Positions 2,179-56,119 of a stretch of 64,000 nt of DNA are shown in pieces (within the stretch, counting starts at the first letter, position 1; each line of letters opens with the position of its first letter). Origin of the DNA: Podarcis vaucheri (Eukaryota). The DNA is taken from the NCBI GenBank assembly GCA_965113315.1, contig OZ220365.1. One strand, written 5' to 3'. The notes under the pieces were generated by a model. That model was not told the origin of the DNA, made no database searches, and worked only from the letters and a program-made list of their open reading frames with translations. Both the position numbers and the translations under genes were made by a program.

Positions 2179-2799
2179 AAAGTTATCAGAAAGGCATTTT
2201 GTTTGTGGCTCTTGTGCTATCTCCCTTGCAATCGAAAAGGATGCAGTTGGTCCAGTGAGAGCAAGTCCCACACCCTCTATAATCCAGCACAATTGCCTGG
2301 GTCAATACTGCTTTTAGCAGCATAATATTGCTGCTTAACCTTGGTGTGGTTTTGTAATTATGCTTGTCATAATCCAGAGTATTAAAAAAGAGGTCCATGG
2401 TGCAAATTTGATTGAATAGTAGTGGAAATAGTGAGGTAAATATAACTACCGCAGTCTCTGAAACTCAGAAATTCAGAAGTATATGCTGTAGGTTTGTTCA
2501 CCATACATGGATGAAGGGATTTACTTTACATACAGTGAAATAAACTTTCTTACACAATTTCTTGAAATATTGTTGATTCTCTGGCTGCTAAAGACTTAAT
2601 GAATAAACCTGACTAGTGAGACTGAGGATCACATTTTGTAGTAATTATATAGTATAATATTGTTGCATGCCACCCCAGTCTCCAAGCTGTGCAATATTCC
2701 AGGGGTTCTGGGTACTTTCCCAGGGTTTATGTTTCCTTTTGGAAATGAGGCACAGTGGAGACTGTGGTGTCTTTATGATATATGGTTCATTTACACGTA

Positions 2800-3026
2800 C
2801 AATGGTACCTTGGTTTGCATATGTTTTGGATTACAAACATGTCAAACCTGTAAGTGTGTGTCCCAGTTTGCAACCTTTTTTTTTTGGATTACAACCCATT
2901 ATTTTTTTTGGATTATGAACAAATTTTGGAGGCCCCATTGGCGAAAGCACGCCTTGGATTACAACCTGTTTTGGTTTACAAACAGACCTCTGGAACGGAT
3001 TTTGGTTGTAAACCAAGGTACCACTG
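2800..3026. mobile_element. Tc1/mariner (Tigger-like) MITE
   Basis: TIRs CAATGGTACCTTGGTTT / AAACCAAGGTACCACTG with TA on both sides. Confidence 0.85.
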
Positions 3027-4029
3027 TATATACAACCCGAGCCTACAATGTAGGGGTTCCCAGCATTAATACCCCAAAAGGATCTTGTTTCTCCCATATC
3101 CGCAGCCTTAGATTCAAATAGAAATCAAACACTGCTCTCAAATGTATCTCTGCCTCTCCTCTCCAGCCTGCTGCTTTATTTCTAGATCATATTGCCCTCT
3201 CAACTCTCTTCCAAACTCTGGCTTGTCTCTTGAGTGAGGAGCCCCCACCCATTAGCCATCTCATACCAAGCTCCTTAATCACCTCATCAGACAGCTAACT
3301 TGGCTTGGTTAACTTTTAACACTTGGTGGATCCAGGGATTAGAAGGTTCTGGCACATATCTCAACACCACAAACTCCTAGCAATATAGTCTTGCATAGTA
3401 TAGTATTACAGGTACCCACAAATCTCCTTGCCAGGGACGAGTACACACAGCAGCCCAGAGGCTCGTTTTCCATTGCAATTTTTAAGCAGGTAAAAAATAG
3501 CAGGAGTCCCTTCCCATCAGCATAAGAAAGACTGCTGTTTCTTATCTTACCCATATGCTGCCAAAATGTGAGATGACCCTGCATCTCAAGAAATGGGAAG
3601 TGACTGGTGACAGGCACTAGTAAGGGCTGGCTAGTAAGCCAAGCCAACATTTTTGGACACTTAAATATTGTAAATGTACAGATGGCTTTTGATTGGGTTA
3701 CTTGCTCTGGGGAACAACTCATTTTCATTAGCTTGAAATTTCATTCTGTCCAGTAAATTACTCTGTATAACTGCAAAGCTTACATACTTAAGTACCAAGG
3801 TAAATTGCTCCAATATGAGTTATAATTATAATTTAGATATTTTGAATCTACTGTTATCTATTGAGGATAGAATAAGAAACTAATAACCATTTGATACTGT
3901 AAGTAAGTTTGAAGGTCTTTCAAATAATTAAAAACACCATTGGATGATTATTAAGCCTGCCTAAGATAAGTTTATGAATACTGAAATATATTGTATCGTT
4001 TCCCCACTTAATTCTCTTTCTATGAACAG

Positions 4030-4077
4030 GTGGTGAAAGACCCTGTGGCGTACATGAACTAATTTGCATTAGAAAAG
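4030..4077 (+). CDS. SYT14: SYT14 coding exon 2 (N-terminal luminal part, GGERPCGVHELICIRK)
   Basis: Acceptor ...tctttctatgaacag| and donor AAAG|gtaagc; 48 nt, phase 1-1. The translation matches the mammalian SYT14 N-terminus as I recall it (GGERTCGVHELICIRK). Confidence 0.93.
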
Positions 4078-4611
4078 GTAAGCAACTTCTTTGAATACTT
4101 TTAATTATCTAAACATTTTTTAAAATAGTGGAACAGCCTAGAAGAGTTAAGGAAAGAGCAATCCAGACCCTTATGTTCAGCTCTCCTCAGCTCAGCTAGT
4201 CTCCCACTGGCTGCTGAATGTCCCCACCAGTGGGGGCAGCACACAGCCCTGGAATGGGGCATTCCAAGGCTGTGAAGAGGCTGATGCTGAGCTGGCCCAA
4301 GATCTGCTGCCTCACAGCTGTTGTATGTCATCATTGGACCTAGCTGTTGTGCTAGCTGGTAGGTGGCATAGCAATCAGGTCTGAATTGGGCCCAAGTCTC
4401 TTACTCTGCTGTTACTGTCATGAGTGTTAGGACTATGGATGCAGTGGTTGTTCCTTTACTCTGCAATCAGATTTCCAGGAAGTTGCTTCAAATTCAATCT
4501 AGTTGTGCTTAAGAATCATTTCTATATTTTTGCATGTAGTAAAGCCTATTTCAGGCCAATTATTCTCCTGCTGTCTTCATGTGAGAAATGCTTGCTACAG
4601 AGCAATTTGTA

Positions 4612-4700
4612 TAGCCACTGTAGTGTAGTGGACAGAATCTTAGATTTGGCCTGGGAAGACCTTGGTTCAAATCTCCTTCAGCGTGAAGTGCTGCTGGCAA
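4612..4700 (+). mobile_element. Degenerate tRNA-derived SINE head (Squam3/MIR-like)
   Basis: A-box-like TAGTGTAGTGG and B-box GGTTCAAATC. Confidence 0.45.
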
Positions 4701-6299
4701 AAATTTGGGTGAAAGATGACTGGTGGGCCATTTCAAAAGAATTGAAAGGCAAGACCTGGTCCAGAGATGGACAGTTTGTCACACCTCCCTTTAAGGAAGG
4801 ACGTAATACAAATGTGATAGAATAATAAAATAACTGAATTCCGAATTGTAGGGTCATCTAGTCCAACCCCCTTCAATGCAGGAATCTCAATGAATGAATG
4901 AAACCTTAATTAAGCTCTTTTAAGCATGCCAAAGCACTAAAGTTGTCCAGTGGAAATTATTTTATTCTTTTCTTCTTCTTCTTGCATGGCAAACTCCCAT
5001 TCAGTATCACAATCTGCATTTGAAATTTTCAGTTTCCAAAGAGGCTTGCAATGCAGCATGGAAAGTTGCTTTTCCAGAAACACAAGTCAAAAGTTTATTT
5101 TAATGCATAGCCATAGTTGTATGGTTCTTTGGATCCAGGCTATAGGCTATATGTGTCAAATCTTAATTGTACTGAAAATTATTTATTTTACTTATATAAT
5201 TCAATACTTATATAATTACTGTCAATAGATCTCAAAGCGGTTTACATTTAAAAAGTCCAAGTACATACGTATTCAGTAAGCCCATTCTCCTTTCAAGTTT
5301 AAATTAAAGTACTTGGAAAATATAACCTATTCAAAATACATGATTGATTTTGGTGCAATACATTTTACAGCTAACAATTTGAATATAAGTCTGGCATATC
5401 AGTAAAAGCAGCATAGTAACATCCCATAAATGCCTGAATAAATACAGGTTAATCTCAGGACGAAAGTGCTATGTCAGAGTAGTATCAGACAAACATGGAA
5501 TCATCACAAAACTTTGCAAAGAGGAATTTATTAGGAGTGAACCCTTCCTTATACACATTGGCTGCTAATTAATTTACACCATGATACTATTTGTGGGCTA
5601 CAAGCATTCAGATGGCATCTTATGCCTATCTCAGGTTCAGGCCTTTTAGTTTTCTGTTTTTCTTAGCAACAGAAGTGTGCTTATAGGAGCTGTTTTGCAA
5701 AATGTTTTGTAGAGATAACCCAATGCTCCACTGCACTGGGAACATTGTTCCTTTTGTTGGTCTGTCACCACCTCTGACACTTGAACGGGTTAAAGCTAAT
5801 CTGCAAAGAGGCCTAAATTCCATAAACCTGTGGGATATAGAGAGAGTTTTGAAACTATTCCAGACACTCCTGCCCCTGTTTAAAGAATTAAGACTGAATG
5901 GATGTGAGGAAACATATTTTTATCATTGATGTAAGTTGCCTTGAGCATTGAGAATAGGAAGTAAAATGGTTAAATAAATATTTTAAGCATTAGCAAAATA
6001 ACTTTGTCATCACCAGTTTGTTTTTTAGAAGGTATGAAACTAGATATGTTTTTTTCCCTTTAGTCTGTTATTATCATAATGCTTGTGTTTTGAAAGCCAT
6101 TTACTAGCTCTTTAATAAATCAAGATTATATAACCCAATGAAACTAGATAGGTACTTGGCTATGGTAGATTGAATTTCCATTGGTAACAATCAACTGATA
6201 TATTGTCTGGTGATTTCCAGCTTTAAAATGTTGCATAGTGTAGCTTTGTCCACTCATTTCCATATGGCATATTGTTTACTAGACAACTCTTAAAGAAGT

Positions 6300-6440
6300 A
6301 GTAGTAGTAATAGTAGTAGTAATAATAATAATAATAATAATAATTAATAATAATAATAATATTTCTATCCTGCCTATCTGACTGAGTTGCCCCAACCACT
6401 CTGGACAGATTCCAACACAGAATAAAAACACAACAGAACC
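6300..6440 (-). mobile_element. 3' end of an L2-type LINE with (TTA)n tail
   Basis: Reverse complement resembles the 3'UTR and tail at 43980-44070; (TAA)n run at 6320-6360. Confidence 0.6.
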
Positions 6441-6504
6441 AATTTTGTTATGTATTAATAGCAAAAAAGCCATATCCTCCAAAGTATCTTAACAAATGAA
6501 AGTA

Positions 6505-6723
6505 GGGTCACACCTCTAACCTTTCATGTCTGTCATGTCCCTGTTTAAATGCCCTTAAAGCAAACAAACAAACAAACAAACAAACCCCAAAACACAGTTG
6601 TAACCTTATGGCATAAACTGGGAATTGCTCTACCCACTTGAACATTTTGGTTACCCGCTTTTTAATCTCTCCCTGCCCGCCCCTAGTTCTACATAACTTT
6701 TTGAGATGGCATGCCCAAAACAA
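6505..6723 (-). mobile_element. Old CR1-like fragment interrupted by the MITE at 6726
   Basis: Minus-strand remnant (VLFWACHLKK...KKRVTKMFKWVEQ...) resembles the CR1 ORF2 C-terminus and continues after 7556. Confidence 0.5.
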
Positions 6724-6725
6724 TA

Positions 6726-7554
6726 CAGTGGTACTTTGGTTCTCAAACTTAATCCGTTCCAGAAGTCCGTTCCAAAACCAAAATGTTCCAAAACCAAGGC
6801 ACGCTTTCCCATAGAAAGCAATGCAGAACAGATTCACCTGTTCCAGACTTTTAAAAACAACCCCTGAAACAGCAATTTAACATGAATTTTACTAACTAAT
6901 GAGACTATTGGTCCATAAAATGAAAGCAATAATCAATGTAAGGTAAAGGTAAAGGGACCCCTGACCATTAGGTACAGTCACGGACGACTCTGGGGTTGTG
7001 GTGCTCATTTCACTTTATTGGCTGAGGGAGCTGGTGTACAGCTTCCGGGTCATGTGGCCAGCATGACTAAGCCGCTTCTGGCAAACCAGAGCAGCACACT
7101 GTATCAATGTACTGTACTATAAAATAAGTAAGACAGCATTGTAGATGATAAAAATTAAAATTATTTTTTTCTCTTTACCTGCACTGATGATAGTCATTGT
7201 TTGGATGGGGGACTTTTATCCATTTCCACAGTCACACAATCAAACAGTAAGTAGCTGAATTGGGTTCCACACAGTCACAAAAACAATTTAACCGAATACC
7301 CCTAAAAATAAAAAACGCAAAATAAATAGCAAAAACAAAAGCTCCAAACTTAATCTGCTTCGGAAGTCCGTTTGACTTCCAAAATGTTTGAAAACCAAGG
7401 CACAGCTTCTGATTGGTGCAGACGCCTCGGAAACAATAGCCAACAGCCGCATTGGACGTTTTGCTTCTGAAAAAAAACGTTAGAAAACTGGAACACTTAC
7501 TTCTGGGTTTTCGGCATTTGGGAACCAAGACATTTGAGAACCAAGGTACCACTG
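6726..7554. mobile_element. Tc1/mariner non-autonomous element containing a nested SINE
   Basis: TIRs CAGTGGTACTTTGGTTCTCAAA / TTTGAGAACCAAGGTACCACTG, TA TSD. Confidence 0.88.
6941..7102 (-). mobile_element. 5'-truncated Sauria SINE nested in the MITE
   Basis: (AAAGGT)n reverse tail, SINE body, and TSD ATCAATGTA at 6932-6940 and 7103-7111. Confidence 0.88.
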
Positions 7555-8129
7555 TACACAGTACTGTACCTCAAAGCATGGACACACCATATATTTGTAT
7601 TTTAATTATGTGATGCTGGAAGTTTTATTTTTGATTCCTTCCCTAATAATAGCTATCATGCAATTTACTTTTTTCACAGCTGCAGCATCCTGGTCAGTTG
7701 TTTTCATTGAGCTATCCACCACAACCTCGAGTTATTTGTTGGTCAGTCAGTGCCAGCTCAGACTCCAAAGTCGCCTTGTAAAGTTAGGATTTTTTTTACC
7801 ATGAAATGTATCACTTTGCTGTTACTTTCACTGAACCACACTTTATTTATTTAACAAGTCCCCCCCCCCCGTTTAAACAACAAAAACCTCTTTTGTTTTT
7901 AAGTTTTACATAAAGCAGTACAAAAATTCATTAAAACACCAATAAAAACAGTAGGCAAAGTAAAATGTATCAAAATATAAGTAAAAGTCTGTAGTTTTAC
8001 AACAAATAGATGTAATAAAATTCTATGTCTAGTAGGTTTACCTAAGCAAATACGTTTTTAGCAGTTACCAGAAACTACAGTGAGGTTTTCATCATTAGTT
8101 GGCACTTGTCAATGTGCCAGCTTTGCAGA

Positions 8130-8790
8130 TTGAACCATTTGAGTGGGTAAGATAATTTCGCCTTTTTATTGCCTATTCAGCCAGTTAGGAGAGCTCTTTA
8201 TGGAGTTTTTTTTTTTTGCTTTTTTTACCATTCTGAATAACTTGGTGTCATCAGCAAACTACCATCTTATTGCTTATGCCTAGCTCCAGATAATTAATGA
8301 ATAATTTAAAAAGTTCTTGTTCCAATACAGTTCCTTACCTCCCTCATTGTGAAAACCATCCATTTGTGCTCTGACCTCTTATCCACTAGCTTCTAAGTTT
8401 ACTTTGGTGAAGGAATTAGTCAAACACTTTTTGAAAGCAGAAGGATAAAATGTGCTTGTTGTCACTGTCAAGGAACTCTGAACAGAATAGTGAGGCAGAC
8501 TTATTTCTGCAGAAAGCACATGAGGTTTTTCCAGCAAAACTTGTTCATCTCAGCACTTGGTAATTTTATCTTTAACAATATTTTAAGTGTATTTAGAATA
8601 TACTTTAAGCTAACAAGTGTGTAATTTTTTGGCGCCCCCACATCCTTTTAAAAAAGTTATTATACTGGGCACTTTCCAGTTCTCAAGTATAGAGACTGAT
8701 CTTATTTCAAGATCAGCAATTTCACATTTGTGTTTTTAAAGAACTCGTGGATGGGATACCATTAGAATCTGCTAATTTTTAAGTTGTCAA
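8130..8790 (-). mobile_element. Degraded CR1-like RT fragment
   Basis: Minus strand reads TTTGCTGATGACACCAAG (FADDTK RT motif) near 8241-8258, with surrounding CR1-like remnants; boundaries approximate. Confidence 0.55.
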
Positions 8791-10648
8791 GGCTTTGAAA
8801 ACTAGCAATACAATTTTAAATTACCTTCCAATCTAAAGGTACTAAATGTAAGGAATGTAGGACAGATACGATCTGATCACAGTTGCTTAGAGCAGGAAGT
8901 AACTATGCTATTCTATTATGAACAATTTAGTTCATAAAGCAGCATTACTGGAGGCCCATATAGAAGGAAATAGCAGAAACTGAGCTTTGTGACCACCAGA
9001 GACCATTGGGGCAAAACCACCACAGGACAAATAAAATCACAATTAGCACATCAATCTCAAACTCAGTATTCAAAATTTGAAGATGATAATGACCCACTTC
9101 CTTGATCTGAACTTGTCAATGCAAAAGAAATTGAGGACATTAATATTGTGCCCTTCAGACCCTCATATTGCACCCTTCATACATTCCCCACCAGTCTTCC
9201 CAGCAGAGAAAAAAGTACTATGATGCAAAGGGGTAAGAGATATGTTATGTTTACCTATGGCACTCTTAAGTGTCTGCTACTGAATCACTTGGGTGTAGAA
9301 CAGCACATAGAGGAACACATTTAAATCTCTTTGGAACAACACATAATTGTTCTTCATTAGTGATTCAATCTCATCTTGTGGATATAGATTTTGTAGGTAT
9401 ATTTTATTCAAGTTGGCTCATCTTGAAGAGGCAGTTCATGTTCAGTCATTTCTGATGAGATGCAGCTGTAAGGTCCAGTGTAATCATAATGGCTAGCTGT
9501 CCTTGATCTAAACTCCTCAGCAGATCAGCCATGCCCATAAAAAGTTTGAGGTTACAGAATTAAAAAAATTGGGGATAGTAGGTCAGTGCACCTGGAATAC
9601 GGCTTGGAGGCACCTATTAAGGGGCTAAAAAGGTCAGATTTGTGTACTAGTTATTGCCATGACTATGGGCTAGTTAGGGCTGGAATAACTGCTGTTCCTT
9701 CTGAGGTGGTGATTCAGAAGTGGGAGAAAATTTGGTAAGGGTCATGCAGTGACCGCTCCCCATGTGTTTCCTCCTTGTACGTGCGGAAGAGCCACCTCTG
9801 GCAAATTATTGTGTGTCCACTTGGGTCTTAGACCAACTTACCTGGGAGTAAGTCCCACTGAACTTGATGACATCATAACTGAAGTTACATATATGAGTGC
9901 ATAATGCCCTTCCTCCCAATAAGACCACTAAGTTCAGGGTCTAAAATTACCTAGCTGCACCACTGGCACAGTTCCTTCCTGAAATAGACCATTCCTTAAA
10001 TTGGGGCTTATGACCTCTCTCTGTTCCCTTCCTCTCCCCCTTTTCCAAGCCTAAAAAGCCTTACTTTATAGTTTGTGTACATCAAATGAATTTTATATGG
10101 ACTAGAGAAAATGATTTTAACTACAATCCTATAACTCTCACCAGTAAGCAAATACCAAGGAAATAAATGGGTTTACTCAGAACTGAGTAGACATGTAGAG
10201 AATTGTGCTGCGTGAAGGCAGTCTTGATTGCGGTGCACACTTAGCTGAAGTAAGCCTCACTGAATACAATAAAACTTACTTTGAGGTAAAAATGCATAAG
10301 ATTGTGCTGTAAATTCAGACTTCCGCTTGTTTTGTGTTTATTTAACAGTAACCTTATTATTTTTTAAAAAATATTATGAACTCCTAATTTATTTTCATTG
10401 AATTATATTTTTAGTTTTTATCCCATCACTATATCATATACTTTATAATACATATTTCAAAATGTATATTAAGGTTTTGTGAAAGTCTTAATTGCTTGAT
10501 GGACTCAAATTTTATATTACAAAAAGGGCTAATTTTTGTTTAAATCTTTGCTAAACTTACGGACTTTGAAGCAAAAAAGTAATTCAATTTCTTCCCCTCC
10601 CCCTTTTCATCTAGTTTATAGACCATCTGCTGGGTGTAGTTAGAGCAC

Positions 10649-10697
10649 ATGAAAGTGCGAAGGATGGTAGAGAACGAGACAAGCAGCTTTGACATAG
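10649..10697 (+). CDS. Candidate alternative 5' exon of SYT14 (MKVRRMVENETSSFDI, in frame with the TM exon)
   Basis: Polypyrimidine acceptor at about 10589-10614; ATGs at 10649 and 10664 (aggATGG); phase-1 donor TAG|GTAACA giving ...FDI-V-SPEAVG. Confidence 0.4.
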
Positions 10698-11372
10698 GTA
10701 ACATGTCTCAAAAGAAACAAAGCAAAGTAATCAACATTTCCCATTGAATTTGTGGTTCAGATATATTAAAAGAGTAAAGATGACTAGGATTTCTTAGTTT
10801 TAAACTATGGATAAAATATTTTCTGTGAAACCAAAATTATATAGCGTAAAGTAAGTTAGATGCTGACTGTATCGGAATATTGCAGTAAACCTGCTGTTTC
10901 CGTAGCACAAATAGGAGCACCAAACCACAGTCCCTGGATTAGAGTTATGTCTGAACTAGCAACTGTGGTTTGATTTGCTTCACATGAATTACAATCTAAA
11001 ACCAAAATTCGTTTTTGGCTTTCTGAGCATGACTTGTTCAAGAAAAACAAACCACCATCTTTGGGTCGGATGTAATGCTAAGTCAGGGATAATGGTTTAT
11101 TGCTTTTGTTTGTACTAGAGCAGGATCAGATTTGGAATGATCTGTGTCTTATGTGCAAAGAGGACCAATGTGTGTATAACTATAATATAAAAATTTTGTT
11201 TTTGGAAATATAATGAATAATTACAATACTTAGTGCTTCAGCAAAATTTGAGGGTAATGTTTTTAAAAGCATTGAACTTCACGGAGCTGAATATAATATA
11301 AAAAGTTCAACAGTGGAAAAAAAGCTTGCTCCTTTCTTGAAGGTAAAGGAATATGTCAGAGACACTTTAGTA

Positions 11373-11604
11373 CAGTAGTACCTTGGTTGTTGAACTTAAT
11401 CCGTTCTGGGAGTCCATTTGACTCCCGAAACGGTTTGAAAACCAAGGTGCGGCTTCCGATTGGCTGCAGGAGCTTCCTGCACCCAATTGGAATCTATGGA
11501 AGCCGCGTTGGACGTTCAGCTTCCAAAAAAGCTTGCAAACTGGAACGGTATTTGGGAGCTGATATGTTCGACAACTAAGCCGTTTGACAACCAAGGTACC
11601 ACTG
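11373..11604. mobile_element. Tc1/mariner MITE (short relative of 6726-7554)
   Basis: TIRs CAGTAGTACCTTGGTTGT / ACAACCAAGGTACCACTG, TA TSD. Confidence 0.85.
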
Positions 11605-12791
11605 TAACAGCATTTCAACTTGGAGGAGCCCTTTAAGCCTGTCATAATTTGTGGTGTGGCTTGTTTGCTTCCATTTTGCGGCTATTTTCATAAAACCTGT
11701 AATTTGTCCCGCTAATGTGGTATGGGAATTGCTTCGTTGGGTCACATTGAATATAAGTAACATTTGTTTACAGGAGTCTTCTGAAATCAGTGGATAATGT
11801 GGTTACTTCTCACACTAGCACTAGTATTGTGGTGTTGATGTAGGTGTAATCATATAACCAAACTCTTCCATGTGGTTCCTAGAAATAGACACTATTGGTG
11901 TGGCATGTGAGTCATCTATGCAGAATCTCTCTCACATTTCAGTGGTTGGTTACATATAAATTGGCCCTGAGTTATGAATGAGGCTGAATGTAATCTAGAA
12001 TGCATCAGACAAATACCTTAGAGATGTTGAATAATGTAGAGCATGACTGATCCTGCTCAATGCAGGTATTCCATTCCCCAGGGTTCTGTGGTTAAGCAGT
12101 AGCAATTAAATGTTTCTTTAAATATTTTCATTGTCTTGTGGTCACAGTTTATTTGTTTAGCTAGAGATTTAGGTTGGACGTAATCAATAATCTGTCATTC
12201 AAGTTATTTTACTTAATTTATGTGACGTAATTATGTGCATTTGCATCTCACTAAAATAAATACAATAAATTCATGTAATTGCATCAGCTTGCTGATTTCT
12301 AGAGAGATAATTTACTATTTATTGTAATCTGTTGATCATAAATAAGGATAATCATAACAAAAAAGGACAAATCCTAAATTTAGAAATGATGAGCCATTAG
12401 ATGAGCTTGTTGCATGGATCAGTGCTCATTACTTTTTATAAATCTAAAATAATGTTTATCTTCATAAAACAGGAAAGTATGATCCATCTTAAATGAAACA
12501 CTTTGAAGGCCTGTTCGTTTCAGTTGGAGTTAAGCACTTGCTCAGTTCCCTCCCTTTGAAATTAATAGGATTTAAATATGTTGAGCTGTATCTGGATTCC
12601 ACCCAATATTTGAGTAAGCAATCAAAGTCACTATCTGTGGTACTTATTTAGTGGGAACAGAATATTCAAAGTGTAGGTTTTGCACTTTGTAATCTAGTTG
12701 ACCTATAGTGCCATCTAATGGCTAATTTATGAAATACGTTAAAAAATTTCCCATGAAAACCATGGTCTAATGAATACTGTGCAAAATAATA

Positions 12792-13033
12792 CAGTGGTAC
12801 CTTGGATTACATACACTTCAGATTACATACACTTCAGGTTACAGACTCCGCTAACCCAGAAATATTACCTCGGGTTAAGAACTTTGCTTCAGGATGAGAA
12901 CAGAAATCGTGCTCTGGCAGCGCGGCGGCAGCAGGAGGTCCCATTAGCTAAAGTGGTGCTTCTGGTTAAGAACAGTTTCAGGTTAAGAACGGACCTCCAG
13001 AACGAATTAAGTACTTAACCCGAGGTACCACTG
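12792..13033. mobile_element. Tc1/mariner MITE
   Basis: TIRs CAGTGGTACCT / AGGTACCACTG, TA TSD; near-identical to 14293-14520. Confidence 0.88.
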
Positions 13034-13932
13034 TACTCTATATAGGTTGCTTTTGGCCATCATAGAAACCATTGAGATCAGTGGACTTAAGCTAGTAAAG
13101 ACAAGCTTATTTCTGTTCATTCTGGGATGGCTGCTCTGAGGATGAGTTAAGCAGATAAAGCCTATTTTTCATTGCAAATTATATTTAATAGATTTTCACA
13201 TCTGGTTTCCTGAGCCTGAGTGAGCACAGAAGTGAAAAATACTTTTGGCTGTGTGTACACTGAAATTACAACTGCAGTGTAATGGTTTGAGTTTTCACCT
13301 GCTGTCTCAGAACTAATACTTTGTAAGAATTTGAGAATAGTCTTTTTAAAATGAGCAGTATTAATTGATAATAATCTGAAGCTGCCAATAATTATTAAAA
13401 ACTTTATTTTTTATATGGGACAGTGGATGTCACTACTAATGTGAACTACTAAACTATGGTTGTCATAAAGAAGATCTCCCTGCCATGTTTTTAAACATGT
13501 GTCTTAAACGTATAAGCCCAGATTACCCATGAGTTCAGAAGGCTGCAGAAATTGCAGTAGCCCCATACTTCATCTCTCACAGGTTGAGGTGTGGGCTGAC
13601 ATACAGTGTGTCAGTAAGCCAGCATACTAGGATAGTTGGCATATGTGCCTTCACCTGCTGTCACCACTGCCTGGTCAGGTAATGACTTGATTAAAAGAAG
13701 AGAAGGGAGCTGAAGTGGGGAGTTGATGGGGAGGGTTCTTTGGGGACCAAAGAGGGTTGACTGGAAGGAGGAATATTTTCTGAACCTTGGTTTATTTCTG
13801 AATCAATTAAGGCAGTGGCCCACTTGCACATCTCTGCTGTGAACTTCTGTTTGTCTGCTTGCTGTGAGCAAGTAACATAAGCTTCTAGGAGTATGCCTCT
13901 TCCATTGAAACAGACTGCTTTCTTGTGCCATA

Positions 13933-14004
13933 AAGGTAAAGGTAAAGGTACCCCTGCCCGTACGGGCCAGTCGTGTCCGACTCTGGAGTTGCGTGCTCAT
14001 CTCA
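13933..14004 (-). mobile_element. Very short 3' fragment of a Sauria SINE
   Basis: (AAAGGT)3 tail; 12-bp TSD TCTTGTGCCATA at 13921-13932 and 14005-14016. Confidence 0.85.
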
Positions 14005-14292
14005 TCTTGTGCCATAGTTTCAGTGATATCTGTGCTACCCCTTTAACACTGGGGCTGGTCTCTGGGATAACATTATTGCAGATAATGATTCTGTCTCTGT
14101 CTTAAATGGTCACTGGCCTATTAAGCCAAGAAAGCAAATAAAGAAGTACACATATTGCCAATAGTGACTTTGTTTTTTTGTTGCGGCATGTATCCAGTGG
14201 GTAAATGGAGAAAAGGTTGGTTAAATACCCTTTGATTAATGAGGATCTTTAGAAGCAGCTGAAATAAGAACTTTTTAGTACTCCTTTTTATA

Positions 14293-14520
14293 CAGTGGTA
14301 CCTCGGGTTACATACGCTTCAGGTTACATGCACTTCAGGTTACAGACTCCGCTAAGCCAGAAATAGTACCTCGGGTTAAGAACTTTGCTTCAGGATGAGA
14401 ACAGAAATCGTTCTCCGGTGGCGCGGAGGCCCCATTAGCTAAAGTGGTGCTTCAGGTTAGGAACAGTTTCAGGTTAAGAACCTCCAGAACGAATTATGTT
14501 CTTAACCCAAGGTACCACTG
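14293..14520. mobile_element. Tc1/mariner MITE
   Basis: Same family as 12792-13033; TIRs and TA TSD intact. Confidence 0.88.
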
Positions 14521-17500
14521 TATGCCTATTTTAAACTTTTAAAATTCTATACTATTGTGAAAGAAATGAAGTTATTTAGTTATAATGAATTTATTATTAT
14601 ATAAATTAAATACCAATATTGTATTTGATACCTTAACACTGTAAAAACAGCATAACTTTTAGTACTAAGTAGCATTCAACTAAATAATTCCACAAGCGGA
14701 ATGAGTTCCATTTGTGCAAAGGGACTTAACTCCTCCTTACATCCCATGCCATTCCCAAATCTGCTCTCGAGTGCTGGGGTAACCCCCAAAACAGATTTAG
14801 GGAATACACAGGTGAGAAGAGAGAGGGTGAACATTCCCTTGTGCAAGGAGAATCCTTGCTTTCATGGAACACTCCCCTTAGTGCTACTTTGAATACAACC
14901 CGTTGAATTGTGTTTTTAAAAATAAGTGTATGTTCATTGACCATCATGGGGTTTCAGATCAAGTACCAGTTTGGCTTGTACACAAGGCAGATACTATTGC
15001 ATTGACCACATTAATAATTAAACTGTCTTGACATGCAGTAAGATAAATATATAGTTTCATACACTATTGGAGCAATTGAACAGTCAACACTTTATGTAAG
15101 TAAAAAAAGAAGTTTATAATTTTTTTTAAAGCAATTACCCTTCCTTAAAATTAAAGGTATTTGTTTTGGTTTAATGCTTGTGATACTGCTACTCTTCAAA
15201 AATACTTTCCCAGTATGTTTGAAATTACTTTTGGAAAGAGATAAAAACAAATTTAAATATACAACATATGTTGATTTTTGTGACAAAGAAAACAAAAGTC
15301 CTAATATAATGACATTTAATTTATGGTAAGCTGCCAAATACTAATTTTGTTAGCGTAATTTATAACCTTTGAATTCATTGCTAGTATTTACAGTACATTA
15401 CAATATTAATTTCAGTGAATTTCTTTCACCTGTTATTGAAATATAATAATGTTCCTTGAATTACTTTAGTTCATTAGATAGAATTTACATTCTTTTTGTC
15501 ATTGTGCATCTGCTATGTTGAATAAAACTGTTCAGCCTCATAAAAACAGTTCTAAGATAGTCTTTACAAAATCTGTTGTATTTTGAAAGTTGTAATACTT
15601 TTCAAGAAGCAATTAATATTATTGTGGGTCATTAATTAGGATATAACATTAGCAATATTTTTAATGGAGTGCATCCTCTGCATAATTGTGTTAAATTCCT
15701 TATATTTAATTTTATGAGAGTTACTATTACTATCTGTCCGTAAAATAATTGTGCTTAATAGTTAATTTAAGAGAATTAAATGCTTAATGTTAAATAGTGG
15801 AATGCAAACAGCATAGTATACTGTACTGTACATAATCCCTCATGGGGTTATAGAAATGCTGGTTACAGGTTTAAGAAAACTATCAGAATAGTCATGTCTT
15901 TCACATGTGATAAAATCAGGCTGCTTATAGTCCTAAAGATGGGTTCATGTATGCAAATTGATACAAGATAGATAATTCCAAATACTTGCATTTGGTGTTA
16001 AGGTAGATGAATAATTAATTAGTCTAGCTGAAGCTAAGGTATCATTCTTTCGTAAGGTATTAATTGCTGTATTCTCTTAACCTCAGAAAATGACCTTAGA
16101 TCTATAATTGATATTATCATATTAAACACTAAATTTAACATTAAGCTAATAAGCAAACCAGCTATGCTCTGTGGCTGAAAAAAGTGTTATCCTATTGGGA
16201 CAGTGCCCTTGCAGAAGAACTATACAGGCAGGAGTAACTTCTGCAATAAAATGGGGCTAGTTTTGTTTTAATTGATTATTTCTGTGCTGTGGCATTATAG
16301 TCCGTCAAAGTAAATAGGGGCAAATGAAACACTGCATGCTTGAAGGCATTGTCCACAACTTGATAAAAAGTCTATTGAAACAGCAAGTATTTTTCATAAA
16401 TTTGATGCAGCATTTAAAGCAAGGCATTGTTAACAATTTAGAGATGAAAACAGGGCTGCATGCCAGTGGCAGGCATAGCTAAAGTGAATGTAGAAGTACT
16501 CAAGTTGGTGTGGCCACCCCAGATTCACAGTCTCTTGCAGTCACAGACTTGCAGACATACAAAAATGCATGCAAATCCCTCTATAGTGGTTGCTCTGTAC
16601 TACAAGCACTAATCCGTAATGAAACTTCATACAATAAAATTAGAATTGTATGTCTAGACCCTTGGAAGACTAAACGTTAGAACTTCAGAGGGTTTTGGAT
16701 CGCCACTAGTCAATCTGGAGGCAAGCAAAGAGAACAGGAAGCTGGAGTGAGAAAGCAGTGGCTTCAAAACCAGGTCCAGGTTACTGACAGGTGTGGGATC
16801 CAATCAACACATTAAACATGCACTAGCTGTCAATTTGTTACCTGACCAAGTCAAAGATTTTACTATATATCTGTAGTGGACATTAGAAAGCATGTGTTGA
16901 ATTCATTCCCAGTAACAAGTTCCACATAGATATCCATGTGTGGTAACTGTTTATTTGCAGCAAAAAAAAAAAAAAATCCTGGTTATAATCCAAAAGGATG
17001 TGATTTTAAACTTTGATTTAAACATTATGTTCATTAATGGGTCACATTGCTTTTATGAAATACAAAAGTAAACACAATTCATAAAAGTAGACATAAAATT
17101 GCTGTCGTATTCAGCCAAAGCCATGTAGATTTCACAATTGGCAGGATGGGGATATATACACACATTGGTCTTGACAGTAGATCTGTGATTGATTACTTGA
17201 TTGAAAGTAGGCTGAAAAATTATATTGTAATGAAAATGATGGCAATTAATATTTATTTATTAAGGGTTTTTATTTTATTCTTTTAACTCTACAAGGCAAA
17301 TATATAAACAATATGATAATATAATAAATGTTAGTAAATAACTTAAAGAGCAAATAAATGAAACAAGGTAAAAGAGTTAAATAAAACATTCAAAGCACCA
17401 GCAGTTGAATTCTATTCTATGAACTCTGTTGAGCCTAAAATAAAACCATGTTGGCCTGATGCCTAAAAACTAACAAAAAAGAAGCAAAGCAACTTCCCTG

Positions 17501-17715
17501 GGTATGGAGTTCTACAGACTTGTTACCACCACTGAAAAGGCAGTGTGCCCATGTAACCACTTGAATGAAGGGGAATATGAAACTAGGCCTCTTGTTTCAT
17601 CTTCTCCCTATTATGTACTTGCATGGAAGTTTGGGTCTGGGTGTGATTTACTAACAATCTAGTTTAATGAAATGTGTTGGCTTTCCATTCTGGTCATTGT
17701 TTGTGTTTTTTCTAG

Positions 17716-17880
17716 TATCTCCTGAGGCAGTTGGATTTCTGTCAGCAGTTGGACTGTTTATTATCCTGTTGTTGATTCTTTTTCTATATATTAACAAGAA
17801 GATGTGTTTTGAGAATGTTGGAGGTTTCCCAGACCTCAATTCACGATACAATGCCAGAAAAAATTCACAGGACAAACTTT
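17716..17880 (+). CDS. SYT14: SYT14 exon 3, transmembrane segment (VSPEAVGFLSAVGLFIILLLILFLYINKKMCFENVGGFPDLNSRYNARKNSQDKL)
   Basis: Acceptor ttgtgttttttctag|, donor CTTT|gtaagt; 165 nt, phase 1-1. Hydrophobic helix followed by KK; lies inside ORF 17667..17936. Confidence 0.96.
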
Positions 17881-18902
17881 GTAAGTATCAAATTCTATGG
17901 TCTATGGCTTTGAAAGACTGCAAACCCCTGGTGTAATATCATATGAATAATGTTATGTAGGCATAAAAGTTTGACTTGAATAAAATAAATATCTGATATA
18001 GTCCAAAATACTTTTACTAATCCATCTGTAGTGCTTAGTCAGAATTTAATGGCTTTGGGGTCTGTTGAATGTTTTGTAAGGGGTTGACATTTTAGATAGT
18101 GGAAAGAAACAAATGGTTTTATATTTCCCAAATATGCTTAATAAGAATAATTAGATCACAGCTTTTATATACCAGGAAACCATATTTTCTCAATTATGAG
18201 GGACAAAATCTTAGATATTTCTGAAGTGGTAGGACAAACCTCTTTTATTTGCAGTGTATCATTCATTAAAAGTTAGAGGGAAAACACACAATAATCATAT
18301 TTGAACTGAATTATATTCCATGACCGCAGTTCAACATAGAATTTAGACTGCATAAACTTGTTGATTTTACTGGGGTTGTATGCTTATATTTGTACAGAAT
18401 TTGTACAGACTGTTGGCCATGGGTACAGAATTATTGTGGTCTGGGTGAATACAATGTTAAGAATGTAGTCCAGTGTTAAGAATTATGTTTTATGGTTTCT
18501 TAATAACCGATACAATGTGGGGTATATGCTAGTGTTTTGAAACAATGTAGTATATCTGTCTTTATAATATATTATTTAAATACGTTTAAACTTTTTCTTT
18601 GCAGGTGTAGAGTAAATTCAACAATTTACATATAATATTTAAAATGTCTGGTTATGTTATACAATACAACATACAACACAACATAAAAAACAGAATAGAT
18701 TTTTATCAATTGATTTTGGCTTTGTGTAGTAGAAAACACTTGCTCCTATTTATTGCTTTTAAGGTAACAGAATTCAGAGAATGACTAATCTGCAGAGTCC
18801 ACAATTTAAAGGATAGGGTTTAGGATACTTGAAAAAAATACAATAGCAGTGCATTTGAGGAATAACATATTTTCAAAGCAATAATGTACTAACAATCAAA
18901 AC

Positions 18903-19587
18903 ATGGCATTTTTCAAAAATTTTCAACAAAATCTGAGCCTTCCTTCTATGTCTTCTCTGGTTGACACACTCAGTAATGCTGTAGATGATCTAACCAGTGC
19001 TGTTGGAGATGTCAGCTATACAGTAGCTGACTCAGTTACAGAACAGGTAACAAGTATGATCAACAGCCTTCGGACAGATGATACTGCTACCGCCCAAGAA
19101 GATAAATCTATAGTAGATAAAGAGGAAAATAAAGAGAAAGAAGACTTGAAAAATGTTACCTTTCCAAAAGATACTAGGCAGAACTGCAAGACATATAGAA
19201 CAGATGAGTCCCTTAATAAAGAACTAAATCAAGAATTGCATGCTGAGGTAGAACAAAATGAGGGCCCGTTGCATAAAAAAGCAAAACAAAAATCACCAGG
19301 ACTTGACTTCAAAAACACCAGAGAAGTGCACAGTTTTGATTCCAGGAATTCAGAAAAAAATGAAGAGCAAACTCCAAAATTGCAGAAGTTAAAGTCTAAA
19401 AAAGCTCATGGGGTTCATGATGTAAAAGAAAAGAAATGCAAACCATTTTCGGATGGCCACAGACAGTCTGTAACAAAGCAGGAAGAAAATGCACCATCTA
19501 TTCTTTCAAAAGAAAGTAAAAAGGAAAAGGCTAAGCAATCAGAATGTTTTTCAAAAGAAGTGAGTAGTAAGAAGACACCAGAAAAAG
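18903..19587 (+). CDS. SYT14: Candidate alternative first coding exon of SYT14 (TM-less isoform, MAFFKNFQQNLSLPSMSSLVDTLSNAVDD...KKTPEK)
   Basis: 228 open codons in an AT-rich intron; strong Kozak aaacATGG; strong donor AAG|GTGAGG in phase 1 joining exon 4 in frame (G+AC = Asp); no transposon similarity noticed. Confidence 0.75.
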
Positions 19588-20755
19588 GTGAGGTGTCTTA
19601 TATCATACTTTATCCATGTGGCCTTTCCTGGATCTTTTACTACATACTTCTTTTCCCAACTGCTTTTTTAGATTTCATTCATAATGATCTTTAAAACAGT
19701 CTCCTTAGTAGAAACTCTTTGTGATATGTATATTATTTTCTCTGAAATTTGCTTTATCTAATTTTATTCATACTCCTTGAAAACTGGTTACATATTTTCT
19801 TTCCTGATTAATGCTACTAACTTTTGAATAGTGATTAATCAACTTTTTTAAAAAAAATATCTTTCTGTTCCCTTAAATTTTGCTACATTTTTCAACGGTT
19901 TGCACTGGATAACAAGAATATTTTGTACATGATTCTTGAATTCTATATTTATATGTGTTTATTTGCCTGGTGCTTCAGGACATAGTGTGCAGATGTTGTT
20001 TTATTATAAGAAATAATATCTGGGAACCTAACATATTATAAGCTACATATAGCTTTTCATGAGGGGTAATACTAAAAGTGAGAAAACTAACATACAAATC
20101 ATGAAGTAGTAATGCAACAAGTCTAATATATATATATCTAAAATAAATAAATATAATTGAAAATATATTTTCTCTAAAATCAGTCAATGCATAAATTATA
20201 AAATAGGCTATTTCACATCTCTAATAATGGAAGGAAAACAAACATTTAAAGCCATTGCTAGCGAAACCATGAAGGTATCCCAAACTTTGCAGTTATACAC
20301 AAAAACAAATGCTGACATAAATGTATCTATCTAACAAGAAGGATAAACCCCCTATATCAAGTTACAAAAGAGCTTTCTGAATCCACTAAGGGTGATAGGG
20401 CAAAGAGGGAAGACAAAACAAAATGAAATGCATGGGGGGGGGGACTTCCCCATGGGCAGCAGTAAAAAGCATGTATTTAGGAAACAACCTTGGTTCATCC
20501 CTTTAAAAGCCTGATTATTTCAGGCTAAAATAAATATTTCCAGGAATAACAGAAACAAAAAATAATTATGTTAGGGATAATACATTTATTGTGAAGTTTG
20601 AGCTCTTGCCTAAACTGGGTTAAAATGTGAACTATATTACCTTCTGTTTAGGAAAAAAAATGTATTAACAATTAAATGTTTACCCATTATAATTTTAGCA
20701 CTCTCCTTTATGGTGCCATCTGTTATCATTCCCCCCTCCTTTTTTTCCAAAATAG

Positions 20756-20974
20756 ACAACTCATACATAAATAAAGATCAGCATGGTTCATCATCTGAAA
20801 GTGAAGATGAGGCACTGGGTAAATATCACGAAGCCTTATCCAGAACACAAAGTTCAAGGCCACCAGCAGGCGATAACAGACAACAGAAAAACTATATTTG
20901 GGAAACCAGACAAAAATATAGCCCTCTGTCTGCAGAGTATGATGGGTACAGTAGTGAAGCCTCAATAGATGAAG
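20756..20974 (+). CDS. SYT14: SYT14 exon 4, linker (YNSYINKDQHGSSSESEDEALGKYHEALSRTQ...SSEASIDE)
   Basis: Polypyrimidine tract then aatag|, donor GAAG|gtatga; 219 nt, phase 1-1. Recognisable SYT14 sequence inside ORF 20710..21093. Confidence 0.96.
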
Positions 20975-24520: not shown

Positions 24521-24660
24521 CAGGGAAGGGGAACCTGTGGCCTCCAGATATTTTGTGTACTCCAACTCCCACCAGTCCCAGCCAGCATAGCCAAATGACA
24601 GGGGTGATGGGACTTGCAACATAGCATAACATCTGGAGGGCCAGGAGTTTCTCATCCCTG
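24521..24660. mobile_element. Short palindromic hAT-like MITE
   Basis: CAGGGA...GGCCTCCAGAT / ATCTGGAGGGCC...TCCCTG; related to 50720-50858 and 52795-52930. Confidence 0.6.
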
Positions 24661-24703
24661 TTATCTTCCCCACTCTTTATGGTTCTAGCAACATACCTCT
24701 TGA

Positions 24704-25768
24704 TTGTTGTTGTTTAGTTGTGTCCGACTCTTCCACTGCCTCCCACATCTTGGTCAAACGCATGTTCGTAGCTTCGAGAACACTGTGCAACCATCTTGTC
24801 CTCTGTTGTCCCCTTCTCCTTGTGCTCTCCATCTTTCCCAACGTCATGGTCTTTTCCAGGGAGTCTTCGCTTCTCATGAGGTGGCCAAAGTATTGGAGCC
24901 TCAGCTTCACGATCTGTCCTTCCAGTGAGCACTCAGGGCTGATCTCCTTAAGAATGGCTAGGTTTGATCTTCTTGCAGTACATGGGACTCTCAAGAGTCT
25001 CCTCCAGCACCATAATTCAAAAACATTGATTCTTCGGCGATCAGCCTTCTTTATGGTCCAGCTCTCACATCCATACATCACTACTGGGAAAACCATAGCT
25101 TTTACTATGCGGACCTTTGTTGGCAAAGTGATGTCTCTGCTTTTTAACATGCTGTCTAGGTTTGTCATTGCTTTTCTCCCAAGAAGCAGGCGTCTTTTAA
25201 TTTCATGGCTGCTGTCACCATCTGCAGTGATCATGGAGCCCGAGAAAGTAAAATCTCTCACTGCCTCCATTTCTTCGCCTTCTATTTGCCAGGAGGTGAT
25301 GGGACCAGTGGCCATGGTCTTCGTTTTTTTGATGTTGAGCTTCAGACCATATTTTGCTCTCTCCTCTTTCACCCTCATTAAAAGGTTCATTAATTCCTCC
25401 TCACTTTCTGCCATCAAGGTTGTGTCATCTGCATATCTGAGGTTGTTGATATTTCTTCCGGCAATCTTAATTCCGGCTTGGGGTTCATCCAACCCGGCCT
25501 TTCACACGATGAATTCTGCATATAAGTTAAATAAACAAGGAGACAATATATAGCCTTGTCGTACTCCTTTCCCAATTTTGAACCAATCAGTTGTTCCATA
25601 TCCAGTTCTAATTGTAGCTTCTTGTCCCACATACAGATTTCTCAGGAGAAAGATGAGGTGATGAGGCAGTCCCATTTCTTTAAGAACTTGCCATAGTTTG
25701 CTGTGGTCGACACAGTCAAAGGCTTTTGCATAATCAATGAAATAGAAGTAGATGTTTTTCTGGAACTC
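24704..25768 (-). mobile_element. BovB (RTE clade) LINE, 5'-truncated
   Basis: ORF 24677..25492 with NNLRYADDTTL, HEIKRRLLLGRKAM and KLRLQYFGHLMR; (CAA)n tail. Confidence 0.95.
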
Positions 25769-35000: not shown

Positions 35001-35311
35001 AGCTGAGGCAAGGAGAATTTGAGGTTTAGGAACTGCCAGATCCAGGACACTGTTGGAGCAGAAGGAGTGTCCTCCCCTTATCTTTTCCTTGTATGTGGCC
35101 TTTAAAAAATGTTTCAGTGTAATAGAAAATAAGTATCCCATCCCAGATTGGCATACTACCCACATTCCAGAATGTGTTGAAATGACATCTGATCAAGATG
35201 CAGCAGCAGAATGCCACCTTTTTTTCCTTGACTTCTAAGGAGGCATTGATGGTGAACCTTTCTATGGAGGTTGGGAGAAGGTTTCCAAGGGCAGGATTTC
35301 CCCTCATTGGT

Positions 35312-35647
35312 GTTGTTGTTTAGTCGTGTCCGACTCTTCGTGACCCCATGGACCAGAGCACGCCAGGCACTCCTGTCTTCCACTGCCTCCTGCAGTTTGG
35401 TCAAACTCATGCTGGGAGCTTCAAGAACACTGTCCAACCATCTCGTCCTCTGTCGTCCCCTTCTCCTTGTGCCCCCAATCTTTCCCAACATCAGGGTCTT
35501 TTCCAGGGAGTCTTCTCTTCTCATGAGGTGGCCAAAGTATTGGAGTCTCAGCTTCAGGATCTGTCCTTCCAGTGAGCACTCAGGGCTGATTTCCTTCAGA
35601 ATGGATAGGTTTGATCTTCTTGCAGTCCATGGGACTATCAAGAGACT
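35312..35647 (-). mobile_element. BovB LINE 3' fragment
   Basis: ORF 35156..35641 (VPWTARRSNLSILKEISPECSLEG...); (CAA)n tail; imperfect TSD CTCATTGGT/CTCATAGGT. Confidence 0.93.
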
Positions 35648-36271
35648 CTCATAGGTAGAAAAGTTAATTTTACTAGTTCTGCTATTATCCTATTTTGAAG
35701 AATGTTCTACTGTTTTAATATTTTGGTTTTGATGCACAGTTGTTTTAATTGATTGTTTTAATTGTTCTCTGCTCCAGAACCCTTTGGGGTTAACAAGTGT
35801 GAGCTACAAACAAAATATCTCTAATAAGAAGAAATTTTAAAAATTGCATTGTTGAAAAATATGCACATATTAAAAATAAGAAAATACAAAGAATAAATAT
35901 TTAGCACAACAAACTTATATAAATGGACATACATAAGCATAATAAAAGAACATTGCTGTTTTAATATAATTATCATAAAGAGGAACAGAATTGTCAGCTC
36001 TTTTACTTAAAATATAATTTTAAATTACTCGATGCATGATGCACCAAGTAATGGTGGGGCCTGGGGCCTTCCAGATAAGGATGGAAACCAACTTCCATCA
36101 GCCCCAGCCAGCATGATCCTTGGCCACAGATGGTGGGAGCTCTAACCCAAGATTACAAATTTCCTACCCCGTCATAAAAAAATTCTTTTTTATCCAGGTT
36201 TGTCCTTATAACTAATTTGATACACTTTTTGCCTTGCACAGAATTATAAAAAAATAGGTATGATACATGTG

Positions 36272-52930: not shown

Positions 52931-55850
52931 CGCCAAAGAGTTCATTTCTCAGCTGAGCTGATGGGGTGAGCCTCTCCTTTCTCAACCTTAGTAGCACCAA
53001 AGGGTTTCATCTTAGCAGCACCAAAGGGTTTCACCAGTAGATGAAAACCCAAGGGAGAGGAGGATGTGAATGGCAACTGTGAATTTTCACTGCATTATAA
53101 TGCGTTTGAATGCACGTTCCCTGAGTTCAGCTTGCTTTCAGAATTTAGGAATGTCCAAAGTAGCAATTTATTTGGAAATGAAATCAAAACGATTTGTCTT
53201 CCTCCCAAACAACCCAGTAATCTACTCGTAAGGTATATTTATTTTCTCTCTGCACAAGTTACCCTTCATGTTTAATATATGTTGTTTCCATTTTGGTAGG
53301 CAGGTGGTATAAGCCGTGATTCCTCTGTAGCAGGATGCTGAGACAACCCACTTCATTGTGAAATAACAATGTTTGCATACGCTCGTCTAATCTTTCTGTT
53401 TTAAAAGGGGGGGAAAGCGCCCCAGGTCTTCATTAAACATTTATTATTTATCTTCTATACTCTCTTTGCGTTGCAGGGTTATTTGGCGAGATGAACTTTT
53501 CCCAGCTCAAAAATATTAAAACATGAAAATTCCATTTGCGCTCATTGGAGTAGCATAGCAGAAACCTCTGTGGGTATTTAATCATTCAAAATAAAGGGTT
53601 TTATTTAATTTTTAAACATGTATTTCATTTTATGTTTTATTTAAATTGTTTTAACATTTGCCGAGAAGCCCCTGAAGTACTAAAACTTTTGAAACTTAGG
53701 TTAGCTTAAAAATAAACATGAGTAATCCTGCATGTGGAGGAATGACAGGAGAGAGGAAGGGGGAGAGAGAGATGCAAGTATGCTGCTGAGAAAGAAACCA
53801 GCCATGATGATTACAAAGCATTACTTGCAAAAATTATCAAGCTATACAAGGAAGCCGGAATTGGGTTGCTCATTGATAACAATAGGCCTTTTTTCTGATT
53901 ATTATGAATATTTAAAGGAGCTCATGAGAAGCTCAAAGCTAATGTGCAAAATCAGATTTTGGTAGAGCAGTTCTCTGGCTAGGGATTTTGAACCTCAGAG
54001 ATAAGGCAGCAGTTTCCAGATGTTAATGAGGCAGACAGTGTAGGCATGGTTTGGGGAAACCAAATATAGAACAAGAAGAGTTGAGATGATGAAGACCTGT
54101 GGGAAACTGCAAGGCACGCAATGCAAAAGAACTTTACTAGCAAATGCTGTATTTTTGTGAGTAAGTAACATGTAAGGCAAGGGACCAAACTTGCAATTGA
54201 AACGAAAAAGTTGAACATTTCAAAGGAGAGGGGAAAAAGAAGGAATAAGATGGAGCTTACATCTGAAACAGTAATGGTTGCAGTTAATATGGATTCAATT
54301 TGTTTCCTTCTACAGGAAATTTGCAACCCACTTAAATTGGTTAGTAGCATTAATCACTTCTCTGCTTCTTTCCTGACTCCAAAATGCACCTTTCTTTTCT
54401 TCATTATCTTATCCAGCTTTTAGAAGCAGCCCATATACTCATACACTTTACTTCATATAAATCCTTGTTAATGGAAAACACTAATTTGTTTCTGTTTTGT
54501 CTTATGGGGGGGGGGCAAACGCCGTGTGTTCATAGGTTTTACTTGACTATTTCTTCTGTATGTACTTTCCATCTGTCTTGAAATATATTAGGGCTGTCAT
54601 TCTTCTTCATTTCTTAAAGTTATTTAATTAATTGTTTGAGGTTTCCAGTGCAATCTTATACATACCATAATCCCTGCTGACTTCAATGGGACTTACTACC
54701 AGGTAAGTGGGTATAAGATTGCAGCCTTCATTAAGTAATTAATCAATTTTATAGTTGCATATGAATAAGACACTTGTTTTTTGGGGGGTGGGGAGTGCCT
54801 CCTTGTTTTCAGACAAGGCATGTGCCACAGAACACACAATGTATTCCCTCCTGTGTCATAGAAAAAGAAGTTGGAATCTTCTTTTAAGAGGTGCCATATG
54901 TCCAGAAGAGTAGATTATGGCAAATTTTCTTTTAAAAAGCTCAACAACTTTGCCAACTGTTGTGTCTGGACTTTCACTTTTTAAAATATGGCAACCCGAT
55001 TCTAATATGCTGTTGACCCTGTGCCTTTTTTATATGTGTTAATATTTAACACAATGTATTTCCCTATAAATTGGGGGCACCTTTTGATCAGTTAAAAAGC
55101 TTTTAAACTGATAACTGTTTAATCAGCTAAATGGCGCAGCCCCCTAATAATACTTAAATTATATTACAGTACTTGCAAAGTTAAAATAAAGTTCCATTTA
55201 AAAGAACTTGGCTATATGTTTTGGAAAACGTAGCCGCAATGTTTGGCACACTTGATTGTGTTTGCAGGATCTGGACTGGGACTCAATACAGAATCAGAAC
55301 TGTAGGTGAGCTCTTAGACTCAGAACCAGGAGATGAACTCAGCTATAGCTGTCAAGCAAGCACATGCCTCATAGTGACAGACTCACGGTTATGATTCAAG
55401 TATCAAGCTAGGAAAGTTAGGCAAGAAAAGAAGCTGCAAGGATTGTCAGAATCTTATCAAGGACAGAAGATCACACCTAGGAAGTACTTTTTATGAGAAG
55501 GCACGGGTGGCAATTTGAGGTAGAATTCAACCCGGCGCTGCATTGTTGGATAGCAGATGAGGCAAAAACTGTGAGGATATTGAAGTTGGGTCGTATTGGA
55601 AGTTCAGGATAATCAGGGCAGGGCAAAAGCATATCTGGATCCATGGAGCAGGAGTGGTAAGGGAGCATACCTAGAGATGAGGGATGCAGTTCCTTCTTCA
55701 TGCACCAAGCTCAGCACATAACTCTTTGGATCAGGGCCACCATGTTTGAATTCCTCGTAAAGCACCACCTTGCTAAACAAATGATGTTTTTCTCTTCCAG
55801 CCACATTTCTTACGGAATGAAAGCCTATGATAACTGTTATTTATTCCTAG

Positions 55851-56119
55851 CAAACTGCATTCAGAGAATGAGACAAACACCTCCTCTTGATGAATTGCAG
55901 CCCCCACCGTACCAAGATGATAGCGGCTCCCCGCATCTCTCATGCACGCCCTCCGAAGTTGGTGACAGCAAATGTGAATTCTCTCAGTGTAGCAACAGTC
56001 CGAGATGCTCATATAAATGCCCAAGTGAAGGGAGCACTGGGCATGAAATAGAAAGCTTCCATAACAAAGGATATGAAGAAGATGTACCCAGTGACAGCAC
56101 TGCAGTCCTTAGCCCAGAG
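55851..56119 (+). CDS. SYT14: SYT14 exon 5, linker (ANCIQRMRQTPPLDELQPPPYQDD...DSTAVLSPE)
   Basis: Acceptor ttattcctag|, donor GAG|gtaaac; 269 nt, phase 1-0. In frame with exon 4 (G+CA = Ala). Confidence 0.96.

Follow-up and report, generated by a model that had tools for sequence, protein, structure and literature searches.

A conserved alternative exon of SYT14 that encodes a predicted amphipathic helix at the position of the transmembrane anchor

In the parts of the literature available to us, SYT14 is a Ca2+-independent, transmembrane protein of unknown function. It has been implicated in recessive ataxia, and hair cells and electroreceptors are enriched for it across vertebrates (PMC13069148, PMC8164606, 10.64898/2026.09.02.748811). 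An initial annotation of the window (the whole 64,000-nucleotide stretch of Podarcis vaucheri DNA analysed here, from contig OZ220365.1 of assembly GCA_965113315.1) proposed that a hidden 228-codon exon in intron 3 of this gene replaces the membrane anchor with an amphipathic helix and a charged domain. Does such an exon exist, is a protein made from it, and how might that protein meet a membrane?

SYT14 lies on the + strand of the window. Its exon 1, with the canonical ATG, is about 2 kb upstream of the window, where the candidate is G000:C17:26161980 (a pattern search of the genome gave three matches, only this one at the SYT14 locus). Exon 2 (48 nt) occupies 4030..4077; exon 3, which encodes the transmembrane (TM) anchor, has phase 1 at both ends and is covered by probable-RNA contigs of runs X1, X3 and X9, occupies 17716..17880; exon 4 (the acidic SSSESE exon) occupies 20756..20974; and exon 5 lies at approximately 55850..56119, by its tblastn bounds. 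The introns carry reverse-transcriptase-like retroelement fragments (1278-1931, 24630-25553, 35156-35689 and 60462-61038). Elsewhere in the genome, at G000:C38:10858897-10859274, the C2A exon has a third match, weaker than the others at 31% identity, within a 323-codon frame.

The alternative exon lies between exons 3 and 4. From an ATG in strong context (AAC-ATG-G) at 18903, 685 nt (228 codons plus 1 nt) lead to a phase-1 donor, AAG/GTGAGG, at 19587/19588. The exon 4 acceptor (20755/20756) is common to exon 3 and the alternative exon, and the joined frame continues through exon 4 with no stop, so the geometry originally described (codon number, Kozak context, donor phase and in-frame junction) is all seen in the sequence. 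The stop-free frame is 269 codons long, and of the 44 frames listed only two overlapping reverse-transcriptase element frames are longer, which agrees with its description as the longest non-transposon open reading frame; in 1000 base shuffles of intron 3 the longest frame averaged 83 codons and never exceeded 203. The many retroelement fragments in the window might favour a chance frame, a transposon or a retrocopy, yet the first 60 residues match the genome only once, the product matches no Pfam family (0 families), and throughout the jawed vertebrates its orthologues are parts of SYT14 proteins. Neither a multicopy match nor one to an element protein was thus found, a check that the initial annotation had itself suggested, and the conserved orthologues refute these origins, whose chance we consider negligible.

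The exon proved not to be hidden. It forms the N-terminus of RefSeq-predicted Podarcis SYT14 isoforms (226 of 228 residues are identical in Podarcis muralis isoform X1, XP_028580571), as the initial annotation had guessed might be the case, and predicted isoforms of human (X3, XP_047273019) and mouse (XP_006497319 / A0A1L1SVE7) carry it as well. A protein search gave 184 proteins of 1408 candidates, the best among the matches listed being Podarcis muralis SYT14 isoforms X5 and X1; a second (193 of 222 proteins) added frogs and axolotl among the matches listed, and a mammal search (139 of 241 proteins) included placentals and marsupials among those listed. Thirty-five of the 36 representatives from a third search have the SYT14 alternative head; ten were identified, and those named include bamboo shark, four teleosts and rhinoceros. 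The remaining one (P0176, a repeat protein with 29% identity) was rejected as unrelated. Orthologues therefore extend over shark, teleosts, amphibians, sauropsids, mouse and human, as the conservation check proposed with the first 60 residues had anticipated, and in sequence and RefSeq models the exon splices in frame to downstream SYT14 exons. The long RefSeq and TrEMBL isoforms share the N-terminus and are automatic models, for which we found no functional description; among the members listed (15; 39 of 155 examined) there is no curated human NP_ record for the long isoform. One aye-aye model bears the name "isoform 6". No paper on a long TM-less SYT14 isoform was found in the literature searched, whose coverage stops short of subscription journals and unread supplements.

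The head is the conserved part: identity to the lizard is 40/60 in human, 36/60 in mouse, 37/60 in shark and 36/60 in Albula, and M1 and F3 are invariant in all 50 aligned orthologues. While the head is kept, the spacer that follows it (about 170-300 residues) shifts in length, giving exons of 228 codons in lacertids, 304 in Anolis, 323 in turtle and 365 in human (emu, opossum and shark lengths overshoot and were left out of this comparison). Tail identities are rough, since low-complexity sequence was aligned globally to obtain them, and counts of the presence or absence of exon 4, which rested on one motif, were not used. The lacertids Podarcis and Zootoca are without some 60-95 spacer residues of other reptiles (near 19130-19150 of the window), which, judged by eye from the alignment, looks like an in-frame deletion of approximately that extent. 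The exon exists, is coding and is conserved over the range from shark to human; it is already annotated but uncharacterised, and that it codes for protein is as good as certain.

Four sets of probable-RNA contigs were compared with the locus; the RNA nature of the runs is a guess. In run X1, contig 7 (1589 nt, depth 5.8) reads through exon 3 and then 18605-19587 with a gapless junction from 17880 to 18605. The 18605 acceptor is preceded by a pyrimidine tract and AG (18575..18604), and the exon that uses it is 983 nt long, with a 5' untranslated part at 18605..18902; it does not begin at its ATG, as the initial annotation had it. This 5' junction is present in one contig of one of the four runs, and that contig retains the TM exon upstream, so replacement of the anchor holds at the level of the protein and not in the only contig that reaches across the junction. 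At the other end, probable-RNA contigs terminate at 19585-19587 in runs X1 and X9, at the donor. In X9 an exon 3 contig and an alternative-exon contig each carry about 30 unplaced letters, and another contig starts exactly at 20756, from which piece coordinates we infer that exon 3 and the alternative exon both feed exon 4. A contig of X3 has AG directly before exon 4, as the end of the alternative exon would give (exon 2, which also ends in AG, has no cover in X3). The 19587-20756 join thus fits the piece geometry of X3 and X9 and is absent among the junction rows listed for the probable-RNA contigs; of the spliced transcripts first expected from 19587, the contig ends at the donor are observed and the join to exon 4 is deduced from coordinates. 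Intronic cover is also present, so part of the signal is unspliced RNA.

Some predicted forms have other splices. Contig 7 of X1 continues beyond 19587 for 285 nt that are not in the compared stretch, and X1 has no cover of exon 4, which fits the exon-4-skipping RefSeq model X5; it is compatible with a splice from 19587 to about 55850, the exon 5 acceptor that would be used. Several predicted long isoforms likewise leave out exon 4 and splice to exon 5: P0001 (RefSeq X5), P0003, P0039, P0048 and P0072. In X9 a depth-74 contig (17370-17880) reaches 346 nt upstream of exon 3 into intron 2, a hint of another start site or of a retained intron, from which a short TM-less form could arise.

In the transcript that joins exon 3 to 18605, the TM frame stops at 18613-18615, three codons into the alternative exon, after 78 codons in total, and four further ATGs precede 18903 (at 18644, 18654, 18781 and 18884, opening 46, 10, 11 and 2 codons). 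Five upstream reading frames thus stand before the ATG at 18903, and translation from it should be hindered in this transcript. These features, together with the position of the stop far upstream of later junctions, could mean that in adult tissues the exon serves chiefly as a poison cassette, with termination of the TM frame leading to nonsense-mediated decay or a 78-residue TM micropeptide and little long protein. A poison exon would not, however, retain its start codon, head of 60 residues and frame of 230-365 codons from shark to human; such activity is conceivable only as an added role, and as the main explanation we regard it as improbable. Still less probable is the use of an acceptor inside the exon for in-frame splicing after the TM exon; the product would then keep the TM anchor and gain a long linker. 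There is an in-frame AG at 18983-18984, and in the gene models P0045 (turtle) and P0021 (horned lizard) the TM exon runs directly into the middle of the helix, but this AG has no polypyrimidine tract, its use is seen in no probable-RNA contig and would remove the invariant residues 1-28, and 140 of 146 proteins begin at the exon's own Met (four have a short upstream extension). The most economical reading is that the alternative exon is probably a hybrid first/internal exon, whose internal use is observed in the X1 contig. The alternative-exon contigs of X3 and X9 stop at 18820 and 18729, and contigs cannot show where transcription starts. As in the hybrid first-internal exons described in available parts of 10.1101/2021.05.27.446076, a strong acceptor lies upstream of the exon's own start codon; the SYT14 exon differs in that it carries the start of the main reading frame, which is reported there to be less common. 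Taken together, we think it very likely that a TM-less SYT14 protein is made.

What would hold such a protein at a membrane? Residues 1-15 (18903..18947) form a short aromatic and basic helix (predicted at residues 3-9) and then a linker with a Pro-Ser end, as delimited by the orthologue alignment and a low-confidence AF2 model. Residues 16-57 (18948..19073) are predicted to form an amphipathic helix of about four hendecads, and 19074..19587, up to the phase-1 donor, encodes the charged, fast-evolving spacer (K 20%, E 14%, S 10%), in keeping with the Lys/Glu-rich stretch first described. The initial annotation saw heptad-like repeats in the head. The hydrophobic moment of residues 15-57 instead peaks at 98.5 degrees, the 11/3 period, with a value of 0.457 that none of 5000 shuffles reached; at the heptad angle it is 0.231 (p 0.036), about half as large, so the 7/2 dominance of a heptad coiled coil is not seen. 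The human, shark, teleost and axolotl orthologues peak at 98-98.5 degrees, with net charges of -4 to -5. AF2 models of the head give helices at residues 3-9 and, continuous, 16-65, at low confidence (pLDDT 56, pTM 0.23); a full-length model (pLDDT 31) was unusable.

Alignment of 50 orthologues shows a V/L/I/M face, S/T/G flanks and a D/E back: hydrophobic residues make up at least 80% of each of 16 columns, where V, L, I and M interchange, six acidic columns lie opposite, and no column between residues 16 and 54 is K/R-dominant. Helix indels are absent from 190 of 204 scored sequences, the others including a +4 insertion in six and a +7 insertion in seven marsupials (7 of 211 N-termini were left unscored, and a row with a spacing of "27", P0177, is a pattern artefact); the insertions that keep the helical phase represent only about three independent events, and 2-residue indels are confined to the linker before residue 16.

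The initial comparison was with lipid-packing-sensor (ALPS) and perilipin-type helices, and neither label survives. According to the definition in accessible parts of PMC6164224, the polar face of ALPS helices is without charges. The SYT14 head resembles the ALPS of GMAP-210 described there in being an N-terminal, S/T/G-rich amphipathic helix followed by a long spacer in a trafficking protein, and differs in its six conserved acidic columns, where the GMAP-210 polar face has no charge. With the 3-11 helices of perilipin, synuclein and apolipoproteins (same source, with the same restriction) it shares the 11/3 period and small hydrophobic residues; unlike them, it has no basic residues along its approximately four hendecads, a net charge of -5 and no match to the Pfam Perilipin profile. 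The lizard helix, with its acidic back and no basic flanks or lysine wings, therefore belongs to neither class.

Hendecad repeats also occur in coiled coils, an established type of structure. It is accordingly possible, if the less likely of the two, that the isoform is made and that its helix, instead of anchoring in lipid, forms a hendecad coiled coil for protein binding or self-assembly. The 11/3 period with a core of small V and L residues fits this, strong acidity disfavours many membranes, and the polar face is about as well conserved as the hydrophobic one (column entropies of 1.17 and 1.00), which also fits a protein interface. On the other hand, the hydrophobic columns conserve class more than identity, phase-keeping insertions are tolerated, the helix lies exactly at the membrane-anchor slot, as in SYT16 (below), and there is no meaningful match to a solved structure (a PDB sequence search gave two weak matches, with E values of 1.3 and 5.3, which were treated as chance). 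Its chemistry, and the fact that it takes the slot of the TM anchor, lead us to judge that the helix rather likely binds lipid.

The proposed likeness to SYT16 turned out to be stronger than first put forward, since the two genes share exon slot and phase. In the Podarcis vaucheri genome SYT16 has its TM exon at G000:C1:10128074, an ATG exon at C1:10136897 and an acidic exon at C1:10154047. The ATG exon has 490 coding nt and a phase-1 donor and encodes, between the TM and acidic exons, an amphipathic head (moment peak 99 degrees) followed by a disordered, low-complexity spacer; it thus matches the SYT14 alternative exon in slot, own ATG, donor phase and architecture. The SYT16 helix is shorter (about 29 residues) and contains Trp, Tyr and Phe, and its spacer is acidic. 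A strong candidate acceptor lies 186 nt upstream of the SYT16 ATG (L013:2711-2897; G000:C1:10136711-10136897), through which, as read from the bases, the TM frame would stop within five codons. BLASTP gave no alignment between the two heads; a profile of the SYT14 head scores the SYT16 head at 7.3 bits (5.8 in reverse, with one SYT16 sequence only), more than any of the 1684 scored of 2000 shuffles.

In the parts of Craxton 2010 (PMC2823689) available to us, the TM and TM-less N-termini of vertebrate SYT16 both join the acidic exon and a TM-less Ciona form is listed; the SYT14 rows there are without the alternative exon, and the human TM-less variants are truncations. A motif search of its supplement S3 did not find the SYT14 alternative exon. 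Its supplement S33 gives the Anolis Syt14 row a TM segment that matches the one in S31 for Anolis Syt16 var1; an exon seems to have been mis-assigned there. Given the same exon layout in both genes, the anchor swap likely predates the SYT14/16 duplication, and position, phase and architecture make common descent of the two alternative exons a reasonably good prospect.

The observations first reported are therefore sound as to reading frame, splice sites and phase, and not as to heptads, the exon start or the word "hidden"; their interpretation stands for a conserved, SYT16-like, TM-less isoform and falls for the ALPS/perilipin label. On balance we favour, by a modest degree, a conserved alternative exon that yields TM-less SYT14 with a predicted 11/3 helix binding membranes from the cytosolic side. 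Most of the long protein would come from transcripts that start inside intron 3 or inside the alternative exon, and splicing of exon 3 to 18605 would convert the TM frame into a 78-codon upstream reading frame and so lower the TM isoform. Residues 1-57 may lack structure in solution and become folded on membranes that are neutral and loosely packed, with anionic surfaces disfavoured by the acidic back. The charged spacer of 170-300 residues might allow the Ca2+-independent C2 domains to extend to a second membrane or a partner as a reversible tether. The SYT14 exon and the TM-less SYT16 N-terminus may derive from one ancestral exon. The full proposal, that one pre-vertebrate anchor-switch exon gave rise to both and that the SYT14 hybrid exon ends the TM form and starts a soluble tether whose acidic 11/3 helix senses membranes by a chemistry unlike that of ALPS and perilipin, is a speculation that we consider unlikely as a whole.

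The exon is already in annotations, so the surprise is limited. If the proposal is true and hair cells or Purkinje cells contain mainly this form, the work on SYT14 in ataxia and hair cells would have addressed the wrong protein, and variant interpretation would be missing a human exon of 365 codons. The 60-residue head, conserved from shark to human, is a handle for isoform-specific knockouts, localisation and variant screening, and its presence points to the TM-less state seen in SYT16 as a feature common to SYT14 and SYT16.
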